45,270 nucleotides of DNA from Escherichia phage Ioannina: sequence record OQ589852.1; one strand, written 5' to 3'. The notes under the pieces were generated by a model. That model searched no databases. It saw only the letters and a program-made list of their open reading frames with translations, and had not been told where the DNA came from. The position numbers were made by a program, and so were the translations under genes. Every line of letters starts with the position of its first letter. Position 1 is the first letter of the stretch. Below, piece after piece: positions 30,968 through 44,954 of this stretch.

Positions 30968-31246
30968 TTATGCGACCAATTCCGCAACCAATAAATCAGC
31001 GTCGTGAATGTTGTCGATTACGCGAACGTCGGCCCCGCGCTTCGCCATGCGCTCATGTTCACGTACCTGGTGCGGCTTCGGCTTACCACCGGGGCGCTTC
31101 ACTTCAACGAATACGACTCTGCCGTTGATGATGATAATCAGGTCGGGAGCGCCGGTACGCCCTTCCCATGCCATTTTACGGCAGAATCCACCTGCCTCTT
31201 TTACCTCTTTCATCAGGTGACTTTGCATCTTGCCCTCAGGAGTCAT
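30968..31246 (-). CDS. VRR-NUC domain nuclease
   Basis: 92 aa; GAPDLIIIINGRVVFVEVKRPGG is a PD-(D/E)xK core of VRR-NUC type. Confidence 0.65.
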   Translation of the reverse strand: MTPEGKMQSHLMKEVKEAGGFCRKMAWEGRTGAPDLIIIINGRVVFVEVKRPGGKPKPHQVREHERMAKRGADVRVIDNIHDADLLVAELVA

Positions 31247-33537
31247 TATTTTCTATACCTGTACATGATGTCGCCTTCAGCGGCGAGCGGGAAGCCCTTA
31301 GCCCACACCGGCAGATCGCACATTAACCGGCATAACTCTTCCGTCGTGTAATCGTCCGTGTCCGGCACTTCGGTGATTAATTCATCGTGCACCGACAGGA
31401 CGATTTCGTATCCCGCCGCTTCGACGCCAGGCATTGCCCATGCGAGAATATCGCGGCACAGCGCCTGTACAATGTTCTCTGTCAGTTTGCCGCCGTAGGT
31501 GTACTGGAAGCCCCACTGGCGCGTCGTCTGATTCTCGCCCTGATATTTAATGCGGGTGTTGGTTTTCTTCTTGCCGGTGTCTTCGTCAACTTCAGTAGTT
31601 ACTGACAGCGCAATGCCAGGATAGCTCATGATACGACCCGACGGCAACTCGACTTTCAGCCACCAGCCGGGCGCGTCTGGGTCGTCCCGCTCATCGTCAA
31701 ACGTCGGGTCGTGCTTAGCCTTCGTGCGCATGATTTTAAGCGCCTGTTTGCCGTCTGGACGCACGTTAGCACCGGCCCAGTATGATTTGCCCGGATTGCG
31801 GATTGCGCACAGCACAGCGTCTTCCAGTTCGGCCCAGAATCTAACCGTTTCCGGGTGGGACTCACGCCACATACGCTTGATCGCATCGCAGGTAAGCCAC
31901 ACGTTCTTCGGCAGGATGTAAGTCGGTCGCTCGTCTTTCTTGCCAGGCTTCGGCGGACGCTTCGCTTCATTAATCCTCGCGTACTCGTACCCGCGTTTCG
32001 CTGCGGCCCATATGTGATCCGGGAACGTGCCTTTCATCACGTCTGCCATCGCATACAGGTCAAGACCCAGGTTTTTGGCAAACTGCAAGAACGCCGCAAC
32101 GCCACCACCATAGCCGAGGCCCAATTCACAGGCCTTACCGATCTGGCGAAGGTCTTTGCGGTTGGCCTTGATATAATCCGGGTCGAGGCCGAACATCTTA
32201 CCGGCAGTTTCGCAATAAATATCGCGTCCCGCCTTAAAGACCATCAACGCAGTTTTCTCGCCCGCAATCCAGGCAAGGCCGCGTCCTTCCACGTTGGAGT
32301 AGTCCGCTACAACAAACTTCTTACCCTTAGCCGGGATAATGCAGCCGCGTACGGTCGATGCTGTCAGCTTAGATATGTCGTACGCCCAGTGTGCGGTCCC
32401 GCGTAATAGGGAATTGATGCCGTTGGTTAGCATGTGCGACCGGACCCAAAACGACACGTCGCTTTCACCATCACGGCGCTTGATCTTGCCTTCGTGGTCG
32501 TCGCTGTACTCGCCACGCGCCAGGTTTTGAGGCTGAAAACTTTTACCGGCCCAGCGCAATGTTCGTTTAGCACCACCATACTGAAGACAACCACGGCGGC
32601 GACCGTCAGACGACAGACCGTTAACGAGCGGATTGTATTTGGTCGACGCCGTTGATGACGCACCGAGGCGCATTTCAATCAGAACTTTGCCCTCGTCCGG
32701 GAAGTCCGGGTCTTCCAGCAAATCATTCAGTGTGGATTTCTGCGCGTTATGGATAGTGAAAGCTGGCGCAATATCTCGTAACAACGGCAGGAAATCATTT
32801 CCGGTCAGCTTACCGCCAAACTTCTCCATCGCTTCTTCTTTCAGTTCTTCCTTGTGCGCTTCAACGGCCTTGATGGCGGCGTAGGCCAGTTCGGTGTCCA
32901 CGTTGAAGCCGCGGTCATTGATCAACTGGTCAATTGCCAGTATCTGGTCTTCCTTCGGAGTATTACCCCAATCCGGGATACGCCAGTACACTTCACGCAT
33001 CGCGATAATATCGAAGCGTGCATACTTGAGGAATTTGGCCCACTCTTCCGGGTGAGTCTCGCGAGTGTAGCGACGGACTTTGTAAGTCTTCGGCGTTGGC
33101 TTACAGAATCGCTTAATCAGCGCCTTGCCCGCTTTATCTTTCGCATGTTCAGCGTCAACGCCCAATACCTGGCATTGCATGTCAAGGCTGCCGGGGAGGG
33201 CGTGGCGGAAGGCCATAATCATGGTGTCTTCGATCTGGCAAACCGGCAGGTCAATACCCCACTTCTCACGGATAACCAGGCGGTCAAACAGGAGGCCGTT
33301 AGCCATTACGATTTTTGCTTTCTTGCGGACTACCGCACGCAATGCCTTACGCAGTTCACTCGGCATCTTCGGCGATTCAGTAGCGTCCCACGTCTGAACA
33401 CGGCCTTCATCAATGGCGTAGGTGCAGATCATGATTTCCGTGGTTGGGTGTTCTGCATACGCGTATGCGCCGACCTTCTTCAGATCAACGCCGCTAAACG
33501 TTTCGGTATCGAGGAATAGTCGTTCGAAGTTCATTGT
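31246..33537 (-). CDS. DNA polymerase, family A, with 3'-5' exonuclease domain
   Basis: Exo I motif FLDTETFSG; Pol motif A DYSNVEGR; motif B RQIGKACELGLGYGGG; motif C SVHDEL; start at MNFERLF with RBS. Confidence 0.9.
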   Translation of the reverse strand, partial: TMNFERLFLDTETFSGVDLKKVGAYAYAEHPTTEIMICTYAIDEGRVQTWDATESPKMPSELRKALRAVVRKKAKIVMANGLLFDRLVIREKWGIDLPVCQIEDTMIMAFRHALPGSLDMQCQVLGVDAEHAKDKAGKALIKRFCKPTPKTYKVRRYTRETHPEEWAKFLKYARFDIIAMREVYWRIPDWGNTPKEDQILAIDQLINDRGFNVDTELAYAAIKAVEAHKEELKEEAMEKFGGKLTGNDFLPLLRDIAPAFTIHNAQKSTLNDLLEDPDFPDEGKVLIEMRLGASSTASTKYNPLVNGLSSDGRRRGCLQYGGAKRTLRWAGKSFQPQNLARGEYSDDHEGKIKRRDGESDVSFWVRSHMLTNGINSLLRGTAHWAYDISKLTASTVRGCIIPAKGKKFVVADYSNVEGRGLAWIAGEKTALMVFKAGRDIYCETAGKMFGLDPDYIKANRKDLRQIGKACELGLGYGGGVAAFLQFAKNLGLDLYAMADVMKGTFPDHIWAAAKRGYEYARINEAKRPPKPGKKDERPTYILPKNVWLTCDAIKRMWRESHPETVRFWAELEDAVLCAIRNPGKSYWAGANVRPDGKQALKIMRTKAKHDPTFDDERDDPDAPGWWLKVELPSGRIMSYPGIALSVTTEVDEDTGKKKTNTRIKYQGENQTTRQWGFQYTYGGKLTENIVQALCRDILAWAMPGVEAAGYEIVLSVHDELITEVPDTDDYTTEELCRLMCDLPVWAKGFPLAAEGDIMYRYRK

Positions 33538-33664
33538 TTCACCCTTACCACGGCCTCGGCGTTCTGTTTCACTTCGGCAACCGTGAAGTATTCGCCCAGG
33601 AATTTGGACCACACGCGCATTCCCGGTTTCACATCTTTAGCTTTAATTCTCATTACATTGTCCT

Positions 33665-33690
33665 ATGAAAAAGCCCGCATAAAGCGGGCT
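33665..33690 (-). terminator. minus-strand rho-independent terminator after the SSB gene
   Basis: AGCCCGC-TTTATG-CGGGCTT followed by TTTT on the minus strand, just after the frame-B stop. Confidence 0.6.
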
Positions 33691-33709
33691 TGAGTAGTGG
33701 GCTTTGCCC

Positions 33710-34482
33710 TTAGCGGCGTCGACGTTTACGTGGTGCTTCGTCTTCGTCATCATCGTCATCTTCATCGCGTGACTTGCGACGTTTACGCGGCTTATCGTCT
33801 TCATCGTCGTCATCTTCATCACGGCGGCGCTTAGACTTGCGCGGTTTTTCATCTTCATCATCGTCGTCACGACGTTTTGACTTTTTGGATTTACGCGGTG
33901 CTTCGTCTTCGTCATCATCCAGGTCGTCGTCAGAGCAATATGCACCGCGCCGCCACCGAAGGAATCCCCATCATCACGGAAGCGCATACCCAGCAGACCA
34001 CAGCCTAAGCCTTTGCCGTTGGTATTGTTCCAGGCCCAAATATCTAAGGAAACGTTGCAATAGCAACCGGAATAGATTTCCTTCCCTTCGATTTCGTCGC
34101 CGTCGATGGTCAGACCCTGCTCCGTCTGCTTCTCGCCTTCGGAAGTCTGGATGATCGGCTGTTTGAATGATTTAGCGTTGATATACAGCTTACCTTCAAA
34201 CTCTTCCGTTACTTCTTCACGCTCATCACCATCTCGAACGGCACATTCTTTCGAATCCTGCGCGTAGTGGCGGTCCATCCACTTATCGGCGTTCTTCTCA
34301 GACTTCAGTTTTTCGGTGAGCACTGCGCGTGCCGCCGCTTCCACTTTGTCCACCTGCGGATCTTCTTTATCAAGAATAATCACCGCACGATATGCCGGTT
34401 TTTGTCCATCCTGTTTAGGGGTATCACGCTCCCAAATTTTCAGGAAGCATACACGTACATTTTTCAGGTTGACTTTAGCCAT
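33710..34482 (-). CDS. ssDNA-binding protein with tandem acidic/basic C-terminal repeats; two halves in different frames
   Basis: N-terminal domain from MAKVNLKNVRVCF (GAGGA RBS) is open in one frame; the C-terminal tail (four DDDDEDE-PRK-KRR units) is open only in the -1 frame and ends at 33710 ahead of the terminator. Confidence 0.5.
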
Positions 34483-34578
34483 TTTCCAATTCCTCATTTC
34501 ACATGTATCGGGGTTATTAGAAGCCACCCCGTCCGGCTTGGTTGCTAATGTACTTGGTTGCGTTTCCGCGGTCAAGTG

Positions 34579-34812
34579 TTATTTATCAAAAAGTTTTAAA
34601 ATCAGGTCGAGATATTTGTGCAGCCACACCAGTGGAGGGCGGTGCACGTTGTTTTCCATCCAGTTCAAACAGGCTTCGTTATAGCCGTCGTCCCATAAGC
34701 GGGATGGGTGGCGAATCATCCAGGCCAGCGCCAGCAGACCGCCGCAGGTATGTACTACGAATCCCAGCGCCGCAAGCGGCAGCACCATAATCATTGCCAG
34801 AATCTTATTCAT
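34579..34812 (-). CDS. small membrane protein
   Basis: About 77 aa from MNKILAMIMVLPLAALGF; two predicted TM helices. Confidence 0.4.
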   Translation of the reverse strand: MNKILAMIMVLPLAALGFVVHTCGGLLALAWMIRHPSRLWDDGYNEACLNWMENNVHRPPLVWLHKYLDLILKLFDK

Positions 34813-36235
34813 CGCCCAAATCCTCGTCTCTTGCTTCTTGCCATTCCGGGCGCGGGTCGTCAACTGGTGCCAGGACCGGTTTCGCCGGCGCACGCGTGAT
34901 TTTATCTTGCAGTTTCGCCCACACTTTCGGTTTCTCATCCTTCAGCACCTTCTCGGCATCAGTAGGGCTGATTAATGATTCCTTGTACATCAGGTCGCGC
35001 TTGATCCGGGCCGTTGTGAATACTGCGATAACTTCGCTTTCATCCTTCCACTTACGCGCACCTTCACGACCAGCTACCAGCTTCAGGCCCAGCGCTTCGC
35101 CGTCACCGGCTAACACTGCTTTGAATACGGCAGCCTCGATCGCTTTGATGTGCTGGCGCATGGTTTCCAGGCCGTCGTAAGCCTTCTTCAGTTCTTCCGT
35201 GGTCATAGCACCGGCTGGCGCTTCTTTCTTTCCACGCTTCGCACGTCGGGCAGCTTTCCGGGCTTCGAGGTCCATGTTCAGGTCGTGGTTTTTGCATTCT
35301 TCCTCGGCGGCAATGCTTACATCGTCGCCCAGGTCTTCGTCGGTTGCCGTTGGTGGCGTCATTGTGTCGATGGCGGCTTTAGCGCGGGCACTACATTGGT
35401 CCGCAAATCGACACCACTGACACGCATCGGCGCTCGGACGGAAGTCTGCACGGGTGAGATTCTTCTTACCCTTAGCGAGGGCATCCAGGGCGGCTACTGC
35501 GCGTTTTGCTGCGTACTTGGCGAAGATTTCCAGTGCTTCCACCGAAATATCCCACTCCGACGCCCCGCCGCAATACGGCTGGAATATGACCAGGCGCACG
35601 GTTGTTATGTCGTACATCTTTTGCAGCTTGCGCAGCAGTCCGAGCGCATACAGCATAAGCTGTTTGTTCTCTTTCGCCTCGACCTTATGGCGTCCGGTCT
35701 TCAGGTCGCCCACAATGAGCATGTACGTGCCGTCGGTCTTCTTCATTACCATAACCATATCGGCAGTACCGAAGGTCTTGATCGCTTCGCCGTCAATCTC
35801 GTAGCCTTTGTGCAGGACGCGAGTCAGATCCGCGCGCATCTCAAGCTGGACAAACTCGGCAACTTCAAGCAGCGGTCGCCAGTGGTCGATGTACGCGTCG
35901 CACTGTTTCACCATGTCGTCAGTTACCAGGATGGCGTCCTTAGGTGCTTTCGCTGCCGCTTTAACTGGTCCTTTACCCTGATTTTCGACGTAGCACCCTT
36001 TATATGTCTTCGCCGTGATGTGGTCTTCGCCTGCAATGATGCGGTTTAGTACCACTTCAGATACGGTGTGCATACTCGTACCGTTGATCGCGGCTTGCCC
36101 GGATTCGTTCGGAATACCTTTCTCCACCACCAGGGCGGCGGGACACCCCATCCATTTTTTAGCGCCGGATGGGCCGAGTAATGAGTGTTCTGTATTACTG
36201 CCGGATTGCGTCTTGCGCTTCGCTTTGATAGCCAT
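34805..36235 (-). CDS. Cas4-like PD-(D/E)xK exonuclease with Fe-S Cys cluster and long C-terminal extension
   Basis: N-terminal Cys plus GDLKTGRHK and QLMLYALGL core motifs and C-x2-C-x5-C (CQWCRFADQC); about 200 aa charged C-terminal region of unknown role. Confidence 0.65.
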   Translation of the reverse strand: MAIKAKRKTQSGSNTEHSLLGPSGAKKWMGCPAALVVEKGIPNESGQAAINGTSMHTVSEVVLNRIIAGEDHITAKTYKGCYVENQGKGPVKAAAKAPKDAILVTDDMVKQCDAYIDHWRPLLEVAEFVQLEMRADLTRVLHKGYEIDGEAIKTFGTADMVMVMKKTDGTYMLIVGDLKTGRHKVEAKENKQLMLYALGLLRKLQKMYDITTVRLVIFQPYCGGASEWDISVEALEIFAKYAAKRAVAALDALAKGKKNLTRADFRPSADACQWCRFADQCSARAKAAIDTMTPPTATDEDLGDDVSIAAEEECKNHDLNMDLEARKAARRAKRGKKEAPAGAMTTEELKKAYDGLETMRQHIKAIEAAVFKAVLAGDGEALGLKLVAGREGARKWKDESEVIAVFTTARIKRDLMYKESLISPTDAEKVLKDEKPKVWAKLQDKITRAPAKPVLAPVDDPRPEWQEARDEDLGDE

Positions 36236-36722: not shown

Positions 36723-37225
36723 TTAGTCTTCCAGTTCGAAATAGGTTTCGACTATTTCTTTCAGTTCGGTGTGGAAGTCTTCAACGTCGTCATCTTCCAG
36801 CTTAGCCACAGTCTTGATTTCGAACGATTCCAGCAGGTCGTCAAATTCGTCGTTCGCGTCGTCATCGTCACCGCCTGCAATGATTGCCGCGTATTGTGCA
36901 ATTTCATCGCGCATTTCTTTCAGTGGATCGGCGTCTTTCTTAGCCTTCACTTTGCCCTTGCCTTTGGCTGGCTTTTCTTCCGGTTCGTCTTCGTCGTCGT
37001 CATCTTCTACGACTTCTTTTTTCGCCTTGCCCTTAGCCGTGGACTTCTTAGCAGGTTTCTTATCTTCCTGCTCGTTATCTTCGTCTTTGGCTTCTTCTTT
37101 CTTAGCCTTAGACGGTTTCTTATCTTCCTGCTTACCAACGGCAGCGCCCTGGGTTTCGTAATGTTTAGCGATGGTTTCCAGTGCTACTACGCCGCGAGTA
37201 ATCAGATTCAGGATTTGCTCAAACA
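36723..37225 (-). CDS. first early protein, highly charged low-complexity with very acidic C-terminus
   Basis: About 167 aa from MFEQILNL; lysine-rich blocks alternating with DDDDEDE-type blocks; promoter-proximal in the early operon. Confidence 0.45.
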
Positions 37226-37269
37226 TGGTGTGTCTCCGTTTAGTTAAAAGTGAATGTCGTTTCGACGAG

Positions 37270-37305
37270 GTGAATAATAGATTGGTTGCAGGATGGGTGT
37301 CAACA
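37270..37305 (-). promoter_or_regulatory. leftward early promoter (TTGACA-N18-TATTAT)
   Basis: Consensus -35 hexamer on the minus strand, with a TGCAACCAAT copy in the spacer. Confidence 0.6.
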
Positions 37306-37414
37306 ACTAATTTAAAAAAAAAATCCCCGAAGCAAAACGCAACGGGGATAACCATAAGAGACAATGAGACTGGTTTTATTATTACACGCGCGCGCACCCG
37401 TTTCAATATACAAA

Positions 37415-37450
37415 ACAGTTGACACCGGTTTAATTTGGGTGTAGTTTCTT
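37415..37450 (+). promoter_or_regulatory. rightward promoter for the HTH regulator and primase operon (TTGACA-N17-TAGTTT)
   Basis: Plus-strand TTGACA about 55 nt upstream of the ATG; GGTGTCAAC…GTTGACACC inverted repeats flank the divergent region. Confidence 0.5.
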
Positions 37451-37477
37451 TGGTCATTAACCAACAGGAGACGGATT

Positions 37478-37807
37478 ATGAATATCAACGAAGCAATTGA
37501 AGTGTTATCTAATGCAATCCGCGGCGAGACGGGTAAATCCTGGTATTACACGAATGCGGTGGGTACTCTGCTATTTGAGGTGTCCCGATTATCGCGTGTC
37601 GAGAAAGAGCTTACCGCCAAACTTGAATTGCTGAACGGTACGGCGGCGAGCAAGCTGCAAAAGCATAACGAAGAAATGGAAGAATACAAAAAGCAGGTTA
37701 TCAGACTGCGTGAAGAAGGTAAGTCCTGGGCGATGATTGCCGAGTTAACGGGTATTAATCAGAGCACCGTTCGTTCTTGGGTCCGCAATACTAAAACTGC
37801 TAAGTAA
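37478..37807 (+). CDS. HTH DNA-binding regulator
   Basis: 109 aa; C-terminal helix-turn-helix (SWAMIAELTGINQSTVRSWV); first gene of the rightward operon beside the divergent promoters. Confidence 0.6.
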   Translation: MNINEAIEVLSNAIRGETGKSWYYTNAVGTLLFEVSRLSRVEKELTAKLELLNGTAASKLQKHNEEMEEYKKQVIRLREEGKSWAMIAELTGINQSTVRSWVRNTKTAK

Positions 37808-37819
37808 GGAATTGAGACA

Positions 37820-40084
37820 ATGAGAAATATAGAATTTGCGATCACACCCCCCGCTAAGAAAGGCGAATCTGCGGTAGCTCATAACCAGTCCATGACTACC
37901 GCCGAGTTTTTCGAATTTATCCAGGATGCACCGGTAGTGTCGTCAGTTTGCATTAACGGTACTGAAGATAAAAAAGAATATGCGCGACGTAAGCGTAAAG
38001 GCGACGGCATTGTGGCTACAACCGCCGATGGCACGCGTAAAAAGACTGGCGTGGTTAGCCGCTCGATCCTGTTCTTCGACCTGGACCGTGCTGACAACCG
38101 CACACTTACCCGCTGCCGCAGGGCTTTCCGCAAGTCCGGCCTGGAATATGTCTACCACACCACCACCGGCGACCGCCACCCGTTGAAAGACGGCAAGCGC
38201 TGTGTGCGTTTCCTGGTGCTGACAAACAAGCCAGTTCCGGCGGAAGACTTGGGTCGCGCGCAGGCTGCACTGCTTGAGCAACTGGGTCTTACCGACGCGG
38301 GCTTTGATGACTGCTCGAAAGACACAAACCGCCTTATGTACCTGCCCCACCAGCAGGCTAAGGTCGAGTGTCATGAGGGTGAACGCGCTAACGTGCGTCG
38401 TCTGCTTCGCCTGGCTGACAAGATGGGTATTGAGCAGGAAACGTTTCGCCGTGAACTGGTGCAGGGCGACGACGAGCAGATGAACGGCATCCTCGACTGG
38501 TGTTTCCAGGCTGGTTTTGAGCCGTTACCATCCGGGCGCGGTTATGAAGTACCGTGCCCAAACGAACATCTGCACTCTGGTGAAGGGTCTACCGCTATCA
38601 TGCTTAAGGATGGCGAGATTCGTTTCAAATGTATGCACACCGGCAACGGATGCTGTTCTGAACTGAACAAACACCAACACCTGGCGCTGCGAATGATTGG
38701 TATCCCGGATATTTATAACGTGGAACCTCACAACATGTCGCGCAAACAGATCTCGGCAATCCTGCCCGGACTGGACGATGAAGAAGTGGACGCGCAGTAT
38801 GAGCACATGGTCGATCTGGTTGGCGAAGGTGAGGATTATGCGTCCTGTACTGACGCAGACCTGGAAGACGAACCAACGGCACTGTTCTCTAAACACGACC
38901 CGATCATCGAAGGTCTGATTAACTTCAAATCGACCTGGTACGCAGCGGGTGAGTCGAACATTGGTAAGTCCTTCTTCGTCCTGGGTCAGATGGCTGCCGT
39001 TGCCGCTGGCATCCCGTTCGGCGGCGCTAAGGTCGTCCAGTCCCATTGCTTCTACTTCGATGCGGAAGGTGGCGAGGCGTCCCACCAGCGTAAAGAAGCG
39101 TTGCAGATTAAATATGAGCACGACCTGGACAAGCTGCACATTATCGACCTTCAGGCACGCGGCTGGGATATTACGAGCAAATCCGGCCTGCGTGAAGTCA
39201 TCAGCTTTATCAACCGCACAGCGGATGGGGAACCGGTCGGCCTGGTGGCGTTCGACTCCCTTAACCAGACCGTGGCCCTGCGCTCGGCAGATGCCAAACC
39301 GTTCGACGAGAACAACGCAAGCGATATGGGTGAGATTGTCAAAGCGCTGAAGTCCATTGCGGAAAACACAGGCGGCAGTGCGGGCGTCATCCACCACCCG
39401 GCGAAGGGTGCAAACGGCAGCCGATCCCCGCGTGGGTCCGGTGCGCTACATGGCGCGGTGGATTCTGCATTCTTCCTGGAACAGCCAGACGAGAATCAGC
39501 CAGGCCAGCTTAACCTCTATCATGAGAAAGCCCGTAACGGCGTGAAACAGGGTCCGCGCGGCTTCGTGCTACTGAAGTGCAAAGTGTCCATTAACGAGCG
39601 CAAGTCCGACACGTTCGAAGCGCACCAGTCCACTAACCCTGGTCCAGACTTCGGCGATGTGGTTGCCGGTTGGGACGTCAAGCCAATCCAGGCCACCCCG
39701 CGTGATGAGACTCTGTACCTTGTACCGGTAGCTCTGGTCCCGTTCGCTATCGAACAGGCGAAGGCCGCGGGCAAGCAGGCTGTTAAGGAAGAAAACCCCG
39801 CCGGTCCGCGCAATGAAAAAGAGAAAGTGCTTTACGCAGCGCTCGAAGCGTTGATGGAAGAGAATCCGGGACACCATGGCTTCAGCAAATCGGCAATCGT
39901 CCGCAAAGCCGGACTGGCGAAAGGTGGCACATCGACGAAGCCAATAGACGATATGCGTGAGCGCGGAATAATCGGCTTTTACAAAGACCCGGACACCGGG
40001 GCCATTTACGGGTCGTCGAATCTGGTTATCAATTCACAAATACCTATGCAATTGACGGCGACGGATGATGATTTGAAAGATTAA
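37820..40084 (+). CDS. DNA primase / replicative helicase (bifunctional)
   Basis: 754 aa; N-terminal primase-like domain (FFDLDRADN), Cys/His cluster (CPNEHLHSGEG…CMHTGNGCC), C-terminal RecA/DnaB-like ATPase with Walker A GESNIGKS. Confidence 0.75.
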   Translation: MRNIEFAITPPAKKGESAVAHNQSMTTAEFFEFIQDAPVVSSVCINGTEDKKEYARRKRKGDGIVATTADGTRKKTGVVSRSILFFDLDRADNRTLTRCRRAFRKSGLEYVYHTTTGDRHPLKDGKRCVRFLVLTNKPVPAEDLGRAQAALLEQLGLTDAGFDDCSKDTNRLMYLPHQQAKVECHEGERANVRRLLRLADKMGIEQETFRRELVQGDDEQMNGILDWCFQAGFEPLPSGRGYEVPCPNEHLHSGEGSTAIMLKDGEIRFKCMHTGNGCCSELNKHQHLALRMIGIPDIYNVEPHNMSRKQISAILPGLDDEEVDAQYEHMVDLVGEGEDYASCTDADLEDEPTALFSKHDPIIEGLINFKSTWYAAGESNIGKSFFVLGQMAAVAAGIPFGGAKVVQSHCFYFDAEGGEASHQRKEALQIKYEHDLDKLHIIDLQARGWDITSKSGLREVISFINRTADGEPVGLVAFDSLNQTVALRSADAKPFDENNASDMGEIVKALKSIAENTGGSAGVIHHPAKGANGSRSPRGSGALHGAVDSAFFLEQPDENQPGQLNLYHEKARNGVKQGPRGFVLLKCKVSINERKSDTFEAHQSTNPGPDFGDVVAGWDVKPIQATPRDETLYLVPVALVPFAIEQAKAAGKQAVKEENPAGPRNEKEKVLYAALEALMEENPGHHGFSKSAIVRKAGLAKGGTSTKPIDDMRERGIIGFYKDPDTGAIYGSSNLVINSQIPMQLTATDDDLKD

Positions 40085-43811: not shown

Positions 43812-44954
43812 ATGCACCCTCAAACCAAAATTACAGACGAGCAGTTGATCGCCGAAATCCAGGCGGGAACGACCGCGAAAGATATTGCTAAGAAATACGG
43901 GATTGCACTGCGCAATGTTTATATGCGCAAAGCACGCTTATCTAAAAAGGGGATTGGGCACGGTAACGATGCCGTAATTCGTAAGCGGGTTGCCGATGGC
44001 TTCGGCGTGAAACGTGTATCCGCCCTGGTACGAGGCAATGGCGAAGAGGTCATGTCGTGGGTTATCACCGAGCAGGACAAAGAGCGCCAGCTTGAGGCGA
44101 TGCGTGCAGTGCTGGACGGCATGAACAGCGAAATCACACCGGCAGCACCCGTAAGCGCGCCACCAGTCCCGATCCAGGCGCTGGACCTGCTAAACCTGTA
44201 CACCGTGTCCGACTTCCACCTGGGGATGCTGGCATGGGGAGAAGAGACTGGCGAGGATTGGGATATGGCTATTGCCGAAGACCTGTTCTACCGCTGGTTT
44301 GTCGAAGCCTTTGCCCGCGCCCCGGATGCCGGAACAGGCGTGATTAACATCCTCGGTGATATGGCCCACTTTGACAGCCTGGATGCCGTTACCCCCGCAA
44401 GTGGTCACGTCCTGGATGCCGATACCCGCTATCAGAAGCTGGTGCGCTACATGATTCGCATGGTCCGCCGCGTTGTCGAACTGGCATTGCAGAAACACCA
44501 CAAGGTTAAACTGCTAATCGTGCAGGGCAACCATGACGAAAGCGGTATGATCTGGCTGGCGGAGATGTTCGCTACGCTGTACGAGAACGAGCCGCGCGTT
44601 GAGGTGGATACGTCGCCGGATGTCTATAAGATGGTCCAGCACGGTAAGACTACGCTGTTCTTCCATCACGGGCACAAGGCTAAATTCGACGCTATCGAGC
44701 CGGTCATGATTTCGAAATTTCGTGAGGCGTTCGGATCCAGCCAGTACAGCTATGCTCACGTAGGACACCTGCACCACCAGAAGATTATCGAATCGCGCAA
44801 CATGATTGTTGAACAGCACCGCACGCTTGCCGCGAAGGATGCCTACGCCAGCCGAGGCGGTTGGATGAGCGGACGCAGTGCAAACGTGATAACCTATAGC
44901 GCGAACTACGGTGAAGTAGCACGCTTAACCATTAGCCCGGAGATGTTGAAATGA
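43812..44954 (+). CDS. HTH domain fused to calcineurin-like metallophosphoesterase
   Basis: N-terminal HTH (TAKDIAKKYGIALRNVYMRKARL); metallophosphatase motifs GDMAHFD, GNHDE and HHGH. Confidence 0.55.
   Translation: MHPQTKITDEQLIAEIQAGTTAKDIAKKYGIALRNVYMRKARLSKKGIGHGNDAVIRKRVADGFGVKRVSALVRGNGEEVMSWVITEQDKERQLEAMRAVLDGMNSEITPAAPVSAPPVPIQALDLLNLYTVSDFHLGMLAWGEETGEDWDMAIAEDLFYRWFVEAFARAPDAGTGVINILGDMAHFDSLDAVTPASGHVLDADTRYQKLVRYMIRMVRRVVELALQKHHKVKLLIVQGNHDESGMIWLAEMFATLYENEPRVEVDTSPDVYKMVQHGKTTLFFHHGHKAKFDAIEPVMISKFREAFGSSQYSYAHVGHLHHQKIIESRNMIVEQHRTLAAKDAYASRGGWMSGRSANVITYSANYGEVARLTISPEMLK

Follow-up and report, generated by a model that had tools for sequence, protein, structure and literature searches.

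A DUF2800-family Cas4-like nuclease of Escherichia phage Ioannina and its conserved C-terminal module

Nucleases of Pfam family PF10926 (DUF2800), collected also as PHROG 69, are encoded by a published phage gene module, duf2800-gp2.5-polA (PMC8093625). One DUF2800 protein, Bas14_0045 (B14T) of Dhillonvirus TheodorHerzl (Bas14), triggers retron type IX: mutants that escape the retron carry changes in the B14T gene, the substitutions D177A/K179A in B14T abolish its activity or effect, and a purified fragment, residues 18-295, is active and cuts the multicopy single-stranded DNA (msDNA) of the retron at the base of a stem-loop (bioRxiv 10.64898/2026.07.14.737667). We describe here a member of this family encoded in a stretch of 45,270 nucleotides (sequence record OQ589852.1, the window) from Escherichia phage Ioannina, which is essentially an entire Dhillonvirus genome. 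The gene lies at 34805..36235 on the minus strand, begins with ATG, and encodes 476 residues plus stop. It represents a typical copy of one of the commonest nuclease families in phages, situated in an already described module, and as such is already known. The original prediction for this locus, made from sequence, recognized a Cas4-like nuclease and proposed that its long C-terminal extension supplies an annealing or recombination-partner function. The first part is well supported; the second is not, and we consider it probable that the protein acts as the nuclease of a nuclease - Gp2.5-like single-stranded DNA-binding protein (SSB) - PolA module, its C-terminal half being a standard module of the family rather than an annealase.

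B14T, like the window protein, is a DUF2800 protein from Dhillonvirus with a catalytic D177/K179 pair that carries identical numbering in both proteins, and on the basis of genus, family, and residue numbering we treat the two as homologues. Papers on retron Eco7, retron Eco2, and OLD mention Dhillonvirus and contain nothing specific on this nuclease gene. More distant precedents are the lambda Exo-Red-beta and RecE-RecT pairs, which, like the window pair, join a gene for a PD-(D/E)XK exonuclease to one of the annealase class and follow a logic of hand-off from nuclease to annealase. The window pair differs in that the partner is an SSB of the Gp2.5 type with an oligonucleotide/oligosaccharide-binding (OB) fold, not a Rad52-like annealase, and in that a physical interaction is presumed.

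The nuclease and its module

In DNA sequence, three assemblies named Dhillonvirus LM40P1 match the region at 98.6-99% identity, Escherichia phage rolling at 94%, and some 150 further Dhillonvirus genomes at about 82%. Annotated relatives carry a gene of equal length, labelled "PD-(D/E)XK nuclease superfamily protein" or "exonuclease". At the protein level, identity is 99.6% to the LM40P1 copy and ranges from 81 to 99.6% among the Dhillonvirus homologues observed. Residues 17-463 match the whole of the PF10926 profile (positions 1-368 of 368, 1.5e-69, 235.4 bits against a cut-off of 21), and residues 5-475 match PHROG 69, 'exonuclease' (5e-107). A scan of NCBIfam assigned no family to the nuclease or to the SSB, and a sequence search of the PDB with the whole nuclease returned no match at E<=1.

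The family to which the protein belongs is large. An exhaustive homologue search found 10,216 cluster representatives scoring E<=1e-3; the best 150 of these are mostly 390-480 residues long and match the query in two stretches (about 15-290 and about 345-465), of which the C-terminal stretch often outscores the nuclease stretch. A homologue is encoded in 1,217 of 50,697 phage records, and in 974 of the 1,217 it covers at least 80% of the protein. The hosts of these phages include Proteobacteria, Firmicutes, Actinobacteria, and Bacteroidetes. For measures of conservation, we used a family alignment of 132 sequences, comprising the window protein and 131 diverse homologues at 29-87% identity.

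The nuclease domain, of PD-(D/E)XK Cas4/AddB type according to Pfam PDDEXK_1, AlphaFold2 (AF2), and Foldseek, spans residues 17-290 approximately (35366..36187, minus strand). PDDEXK_1 matches residues 50-281 (5e-09), and AF2, given the 132-sequence alignment, models the domain with a predicted local distance difference test score (pLDDT) of 92-98. The signature of Cas4 and AddB combines four cysteines, spaced C...C-x2-C-x5-C, with D...DxK and QxxxY motifs. All of these, the D...(D/E)xK motif, QxxxY, and the four-Cys spacing, occur in the window protein. The cysteines of the protein are residues 31, 81, 112, 222, 272, 275, 281, and 314; the three C-terminal ligand candidates, C272-x2-C275-x5-C281 (35393..35422, minus strand), occupy invariant alignment columns, and Cys31 (36143..36145, minus strand), the N-terminal ligand of the predicted 4Fe-4S cluster, is conserved in at least 90% of sequences. 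Invariant besides cysteine are H56, E132, G156, D159, D177, K179, G181, Q192, and Y196, including the catalytic D177-L-K179 of motif III (35699..35707, minus strand). The original call of Cas4-like motifs with one N-terminal and three C-terminal cysteines is thus borne out by conserved residues and by the PDDEXK_1 match, and the domain is predicted to carry a 4Fe-4S cluster.

Foldseek matched the modelled domain to ACE1 (9iac, 5e-07), AdnA (6ppu, 1e-06), Cas4 SSO0001 (4ic1, 4e-05), 5eax (6e-05), and 4cei_B (1e-04), and its structural relatives include MGME1, Dna2, AddB, Exo5, and RecE. Cas4 (SSO0001, 4ic1; type I-C, 8d3l) and ACE1 share with it the PD-(D/E)XK core, QxxxY, the four-Cys pattern, and the fold (E from 5e-07 to 7e-04), whereas the window nuclease has an extra C-terminal module of 190 residues and only 13-16% sequence identity to them. 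ACE1 is an Argonaute-associated protein of the Cas4 family, while the window nuclease has neither a CRISPR nor an Argonaute context. A genuine CRISPR Cas4 is ruled out, as the neighbors are phage replication genes rather than cas1 and cas2, and the protein should be called Cas4-like only. AddB, AdnA, Dna2, and Exo5 share the fold and the iron-sulfur 'staple' arrangement, which is predicted here. The nuclease domains of AddB, AdnA, and RecB, together with Dna2, MGME1, and Exo5, all perform end- or flap-processing chemistry; unlike them, the window nuclease stands alone, without a helicase motor.

The published module order of nuclease, PF10991 protein, and family A polymerase is present in the window. 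Two genes downstream of the nuclease, past an open reading frame (ORF) of 77 residues, the next large downstream gene (33643..34482, minus strand, in an ORF of 33643..34575) encodes a Gp2.5-like or Enc34-type protein of the annealase class that binds single-stranded DNA (ssDNA), matching PF10991 (2.3e-30) and phrog_112 (1.1e-47). PF10991, formerly DUF2815, is the Enc34 ssDNA-binding protein family, and the window SSB matches its OB-fold domain. The third member of the module, a family A DNA polymerase (PF00476, phrog_17), is encoded at 31246..33534 on the minus strand. We compared ten diverse phages of Yersinia, Caulobacter, Providencia, Bacillus, Rhodobacter, Blautia, Streptococcus, Paenibacillus, Corynebacterium, and Bacteroides hosts. 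In all ten, the DUF2800 nuclease is full-length (from profile position 1 to 365-368), has the two-stretch architecture of nuclease plus C-terminal module, and has a PF10991 gene as its nearest sizeable downstream gene (E from 4e-16 to 6e-77). A DNA polymerase is annotated after the PF10991 gene in most of the ten. Seven more phages are consistent with the module by annotation, and the synteny including the polymerase recurs in twelve annotated records. The window thus agrees with the published module in its full-length profile match, in the identity of the neighbors, and in their order.

The C-terminal domain and the question of annealing

The description of the C-terminal part as a charged extension of some 200 residues proved accurate. 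Beyond the last cysteine of the cluster, the chain continues for about 195 residues, of which 15% are Ala, 11.5% are Lys, 11% are Glu, and 10% are Asp; 39% are charged, against 26% in the N-terminal part. The enrichment in Ala and Lys is only slight, however, as the N-terminal domain itself contains 13% Ala and 10% Lys. This part of the protein divides into three regions: a variable acidic linker (residues 291-345; 35201..35365, minus strand), a conserved basic alpha/beta domain (residues 346-463; 34847..35200, minus strand), and a short acidic tail (residues 464-476).

Structure prediction separates the linker sharply from what follows it. The AF2 model of the full protein has a mean pLDDT of 90.2 and a predicted template modeling score (pTM) of 0.80, and only the linker is of low confidence (52-78). 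Residues 346-463 are modelled as an alpha/beta domain at pLDDT 83-98, rising to 95.2 when predicted alone from a 50-sequence alignment. Across the family, the nuclease domain has a conservation (mean majority frequency) of 0.45, a mean net charge of -11, and a median length of 255 residues. For the linker, conservation falls to 0.14 with a mean net charge of -4; its length varies from 7 to 60 residues, with a median of 27 as compared to 55 in the window protein, which accounts for a total length of 476 residues against about 390-440. The C-terminal domain (median 117 residues, mean net charge +4.6) is, at 0.53, more conserved than the nuclease domain, and ten of its positions, G377, K385, V387, G389, G392, R394, W396, P424, D460, and R462, are conserved in at least 90% of members. 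The tail has a conservation of 0.40, a mean net charge of -4.6, and a median length of 19 residues.

By itself, the segment from residue 344 to 476 matches positions 253-368 of the DUF2800 profile (78 bits, 8e-22). Because of this standalone match and the recurrent two-stretch architecture, the C-terminal module must be viewed as belonging to the family and not as an addition made in one lineage. A similar fold is seen in BFVD models of distant homologues, with template modeling (TM) scores of 0.5-0.71. A PDB search with a sequence profile of the domain found nothing relevant, and a protein search with the same profile found only PF10926 proteins, short DUF2800 fragments, or split genes, with no new domain architectures. 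We conclude that the domain, as modelled, is folded, basic, and conserved, without a solved structural relative; as a basic domain, it may be a DNA- or partner-binding module. Weak BFVD matches of the domain to stand-alone phage proteins of about 130-165 residues and to 'Siphovirus Gp157' were judged unconvincing (E from 1e-3 to 0.7, TM 0.25-0.48). In Salmonella phage 35 (905-2241) and Streptococcus phage BV-0002 (4001-5662), the DUF2800 gene is annotated as two coding sequences or is truncated, and the neighboring SSB is odd or missing. These genes are probably frameshift errors or pseudogenes, and split genes of this kind could explain some of the matches to a 'stand-alone C-terminal domain'.

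An annealing or recombination-partner function for the extension had been proposed on the ground that no separate annealase gene was recognized. That premise fails, in view of the PF10991 gene downstream. Compared with RecT, Erf, Sak, and all other family profiles, the C-terminal region matched DUF2800 only (E<=10), with no hit to a single-strand annealing protein (RecT/Red-beta, Erf, Rad52/Sak, Sak3, Sak4, or Gp2.5), and its model shows no structural similarity to an annealase or to an OB fold. Among 20 further window ORFs, mostly from the early and replication region, PHROG scans revealed no member of the RecT, Erf, Sak, or Sak4 families. What might still be said for a fused annealing module replacing a missing gene is that the region is long and charged, and that the neighboring SSB gene of the window has a frameshifted tail. 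The C-terminal domain, however, is always accompanied by a separate gene of the SSB/annealase class, and this coexistence argues against the domain replacing one. We regard the annealing-module explanation as largely refuted and its truth as extremely improbable. The opposite outcome, a C-terminal region fully disordered and without homologs, was not found either, since the linker alone is of low confidence and the domain beyond it is confidently folded and widely conserved.

The frameshift in the SSB gene is a 1-nt deletion at about 33947 (33935-33957, minus strand), in GGTGGCGGC[G]GCGGT, as judged against five relatives: phages rolling and JLBYU60, and the three LM40P1 assemblies. It removes the acidic/basic C-terminal tail of the SSB, so that the acidic tail expected of such a protein is out of frame in the window while it is intact in all five relatives, whose frame would read DDDLDDDEDEAPRK...RRRR with a stop at 33710. 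The change could be a sequencing error or could represent a real tail-less variant. Two relatives carry different in-frame deletions of 54 nt in the same repeat-rich stretch, which marks the SSB tail as a hot spot of length variation. Strand annealing is known for T7 gp2.5, and by kinship to it the window SSB may anneal ssDNA as well.

Acidic tails and the remaining genes of the window

The last region of the nuclease is the tail EWQEARDEDLGDE (residues 464-476; 34808..34846, minus strand), which is net-negative in 98% of the family. At its hydrophobic position 473, 80% of the family have Phe, while the window protein has Leu. In 18 phages, we found that the acidic tail of the nuclease resembles a motif located C-terminal to the OB fold of the cognate SSB from the same phage. 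The paired motifs are ...NDFENVDETESAESLI (nuclease) and ...DDFDEITEGADAESLI (SSB) in Yersinia YeP4, and DEDLGDE (nuclease) and DDDLDDDE (SSB) in Dhillonvirus; nuclease and SSB share DDFDDL in Rhodobacter RcCWillis, DDDLS in Pantoea AH01, and ASDFA in Achromobacter JWX. We summed the best ungapped BLOSUM62 scores over cognate pairs and compared the sum with that of permuted pairings. Cognate pairs score 436, as compared to 340 ± 20 for permuted pairs (p about 1e-5); the p value ranges from 1e-5 to 4e-4 across tail-length settings and is 2e-4 when close relatives are left out (15 phages). The likeness between nuclease and cognate SSB tails is possibly a new observation.

A third protein of the window has a related ending. 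The primase-helicase (37820..40084) terminates in TATDDDLKD (40055..40081, plus strand) and shows the acidic D-D/E-D-L motif seen in the nuclease tail and at the beginning of the SSB tail. Three Dhillonvirus genomes, phages rolling and JLBYU60 among them, have the DDDLKD ending, and DFL[DN] closes both the primase and the SSB of a Streptococcus phage. Acidic tails on T7 gp2.5 and gp4 bind polymerase. Like those tails, and like the tails of bacterial SSBs, the tails compared here are short and acidic, have a terminal hydrophobic or aromatic residue, and are carried by more than one replication protein of a given phage; they differ from the T7 case in that the motif is also found on a nuclease. 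The T7 gp2.5 tail binds both polymerase and helicase, and crystals of the Enc34 SSB have its acidic tail lodged in a groove of neighboring molecules (PMC5686142). By analogy with the T7 tails and the Enc34 crystal, the shared motif suggests a docking peptide common to nuclease, SSB, and primase-helicase.

Several other genes of the window were noted. The 77-residue hydrophobic ORF between nuclease and SSB (34579-34812, minus strand) matches only a family of unknown function, phrog_11211; its ATG overlaps the end of the nuclease gene, last codons and stop, over 8 nt (GCGATGAATAA), an arrangement suggestive of translational coupling. Upstream of the polymerase gene lies a small ORF of 40 residues (33531..33653, minus strand). 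Compared with all three LM40P1 assemblies, it is shorter by 48 nt (16 codons, in frame) at about 33559, and phages rolling and JLBYU60 have a gene of 171 bp (56 residues) annotated at the corresponding site. Upstream of the nuclease in the same leftward operon, 36723-37457 (minus strand) encodes an extremely charged, Lys/Glu/Asp-rich protein of unknown function (phrog_3127), whose real start is probably near residue 78 and whose low-complexity acidic/basic repeats resemble those of the SSB tail. The 109-residue product of 37478-37807 (plus strand) is labelled 'DNA recombination nuclease inhibitor gamma' in relatives, but it matches only the helix-turn-helix families HTH_23 and Sigma70_r4_2 and phrog_9366 'transposase'; the name Gam is apparently an annotation artefact. 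An SbcD/calcineurin-like 'DNA repair exonuclease' is encoded at 43812-44954 (plus strand; phrog_704, 3e-161), and a small endonuclease or Holliday-junction-resolvase-like protein at 30968-31246 (minus strand; phrog_93, phrog_5702). The phage therefore has more recombination hardware than the nuclease-SSB pair.

Possible roles of the nuclease and its C-terminal module

We favor the following mechanism. The Cas4/AddB-type domain would cut or resect DNA at junctions of single strand and duplex, generating or trimming 5' ssDNA at ends or flaps (a presumed polarity), and the separate Gp2.5-like SSB would coat the ssDNA and anneal it for recombination-dependent replication with PolA. The basic C-terminal domain may bind DNA or a partner, while the nuclease tail, if T7 gp2.5 and gp4 are a guide, would dock to a common replisome partner, most likely PolA or the SSB groove. 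Taken one step further, the DUF2800 C-terminal module might be an unrecognized device for coupling replisome and recombination, in which the basic domain holds DNA or a partner and the shared tail docks nuclease, SSB, and, in Dhillonvirus, primase-helicase at one site (PolA or the SSB groove). We offer this extension tentatively, as an idea with somewhat worse than even prospects. Docking between the nuclease and C-terminal domains is suggested by a single measure, the pTM of the full-length model.

A number of observations weigh against this scheme or parts of it. Annealing has been shown for T7 gp2.5 and not for DUF2815 proteins, for which ssDNA binding alone has been demonstrated (PMC5686142). 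Bas14 escapers with truncated B14T are viable (10.64898/2026.07.14.737667), so the nuclease is not essential in Dhillonvirus. B14T 18-295, whose boundaries match those of the modelled nuclease domain, cleaves msDNA in vitro; the C-terminal module is therefore dispensable for this cleavage and not needed for catalysis. The remainder of B14T, beginning with the protease-sensitive linker, was lost by proteolysis and was called 'predicted disordered' (AlphaFold3, pTM 0.66; 10.64898/2026.07.14.737667). Tight docking is disfavored, in spite of the pTM of 0.80 obtained here, because this remainder did not co-purify with the nuclease domain. As for the tails, the likeness involves short, compositionally biased peptides from 18 phages and may partly reflect shared acidic composition, and the primase-helicase motif is clear only in Dhillonvirus and one Streptococcus phage.

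The proteolysis result and the disordered C-terminal region of the preprint model, together with the low pLDDT of the linker, could be taken to mean that everything beyond the nuclease domain is an intrinsically disordered appendix of no functional importance. Here the models and the conservation of the window protein disagree with the preprint: residues 346-463 are confidently folded, with or without the rest of the chain, are more conserved than the nuclease domain, include ten positions of near-invariance, and adopt a fold that recurs in models of distant homologues. We find an unimportant appendix improbable. Scarcely better is the prospect that the nuclease chiefly degrades host DNA or counters host defence and is directed to a host factor by its C-terminal domain. 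Cleavage of retron msDNA by B14T, which a defence system senses, and the non-essential status of the nuclease in Bas14 would fit such a role, but the synteny with SSB and PolA is kept in phages whose unrelated hosts span several bacterial phyla, such conservation would be surprising in a host-specific targeting domain, and msDNA cleavage activates defence rather than evading it.

A serious alternative, although still the less probable one, is that the nuclease is mainly a Dna2-like flap- or primer-removal enzyme of the replisome, serving PolA, rather than a recombination exonuclease for end resection. In the window PolA, matches were confined to the polymerase domain and a 3'-5' exonuclease region, with no family of flap endonuclease (FEN) or 5'-3' exonuclease, and neither a FEN nor an RNase H gene was present among the scanned window ORFs. 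Dna2 and MGME1 are among the structural relatives, the cut made by B14T at the base of a stem-loop is structure-specific cleavage, the T5 FEN likewise triggers another retron, and the nuclease has its tail motif in common with primase-helicase and SSB. Against this stand the pairing with a Gp2.5-class annealase, which classically marks a two-component recombinase (PMC8093625), and the viability of B14T truncation mutants. The two roles are not mutually exclusive.

The gene itself brings nothing new, as a close homologue has already been studied biochemically. The C-terminal third of DUF2800 proteins, labelled disordered in the current literature, is a reasonable target for studies of structure and function, including how retrons sense the nuclease. 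If the C-terminal module does act as a coupling device, hand-offs within one complex would link resection or flap cutting to the coating of ssDNA and to synthesis, and the phage-specific shared tail provides a directly testable hypothesis for the cohesion of the widespread nuclease-SSB-PolA module.

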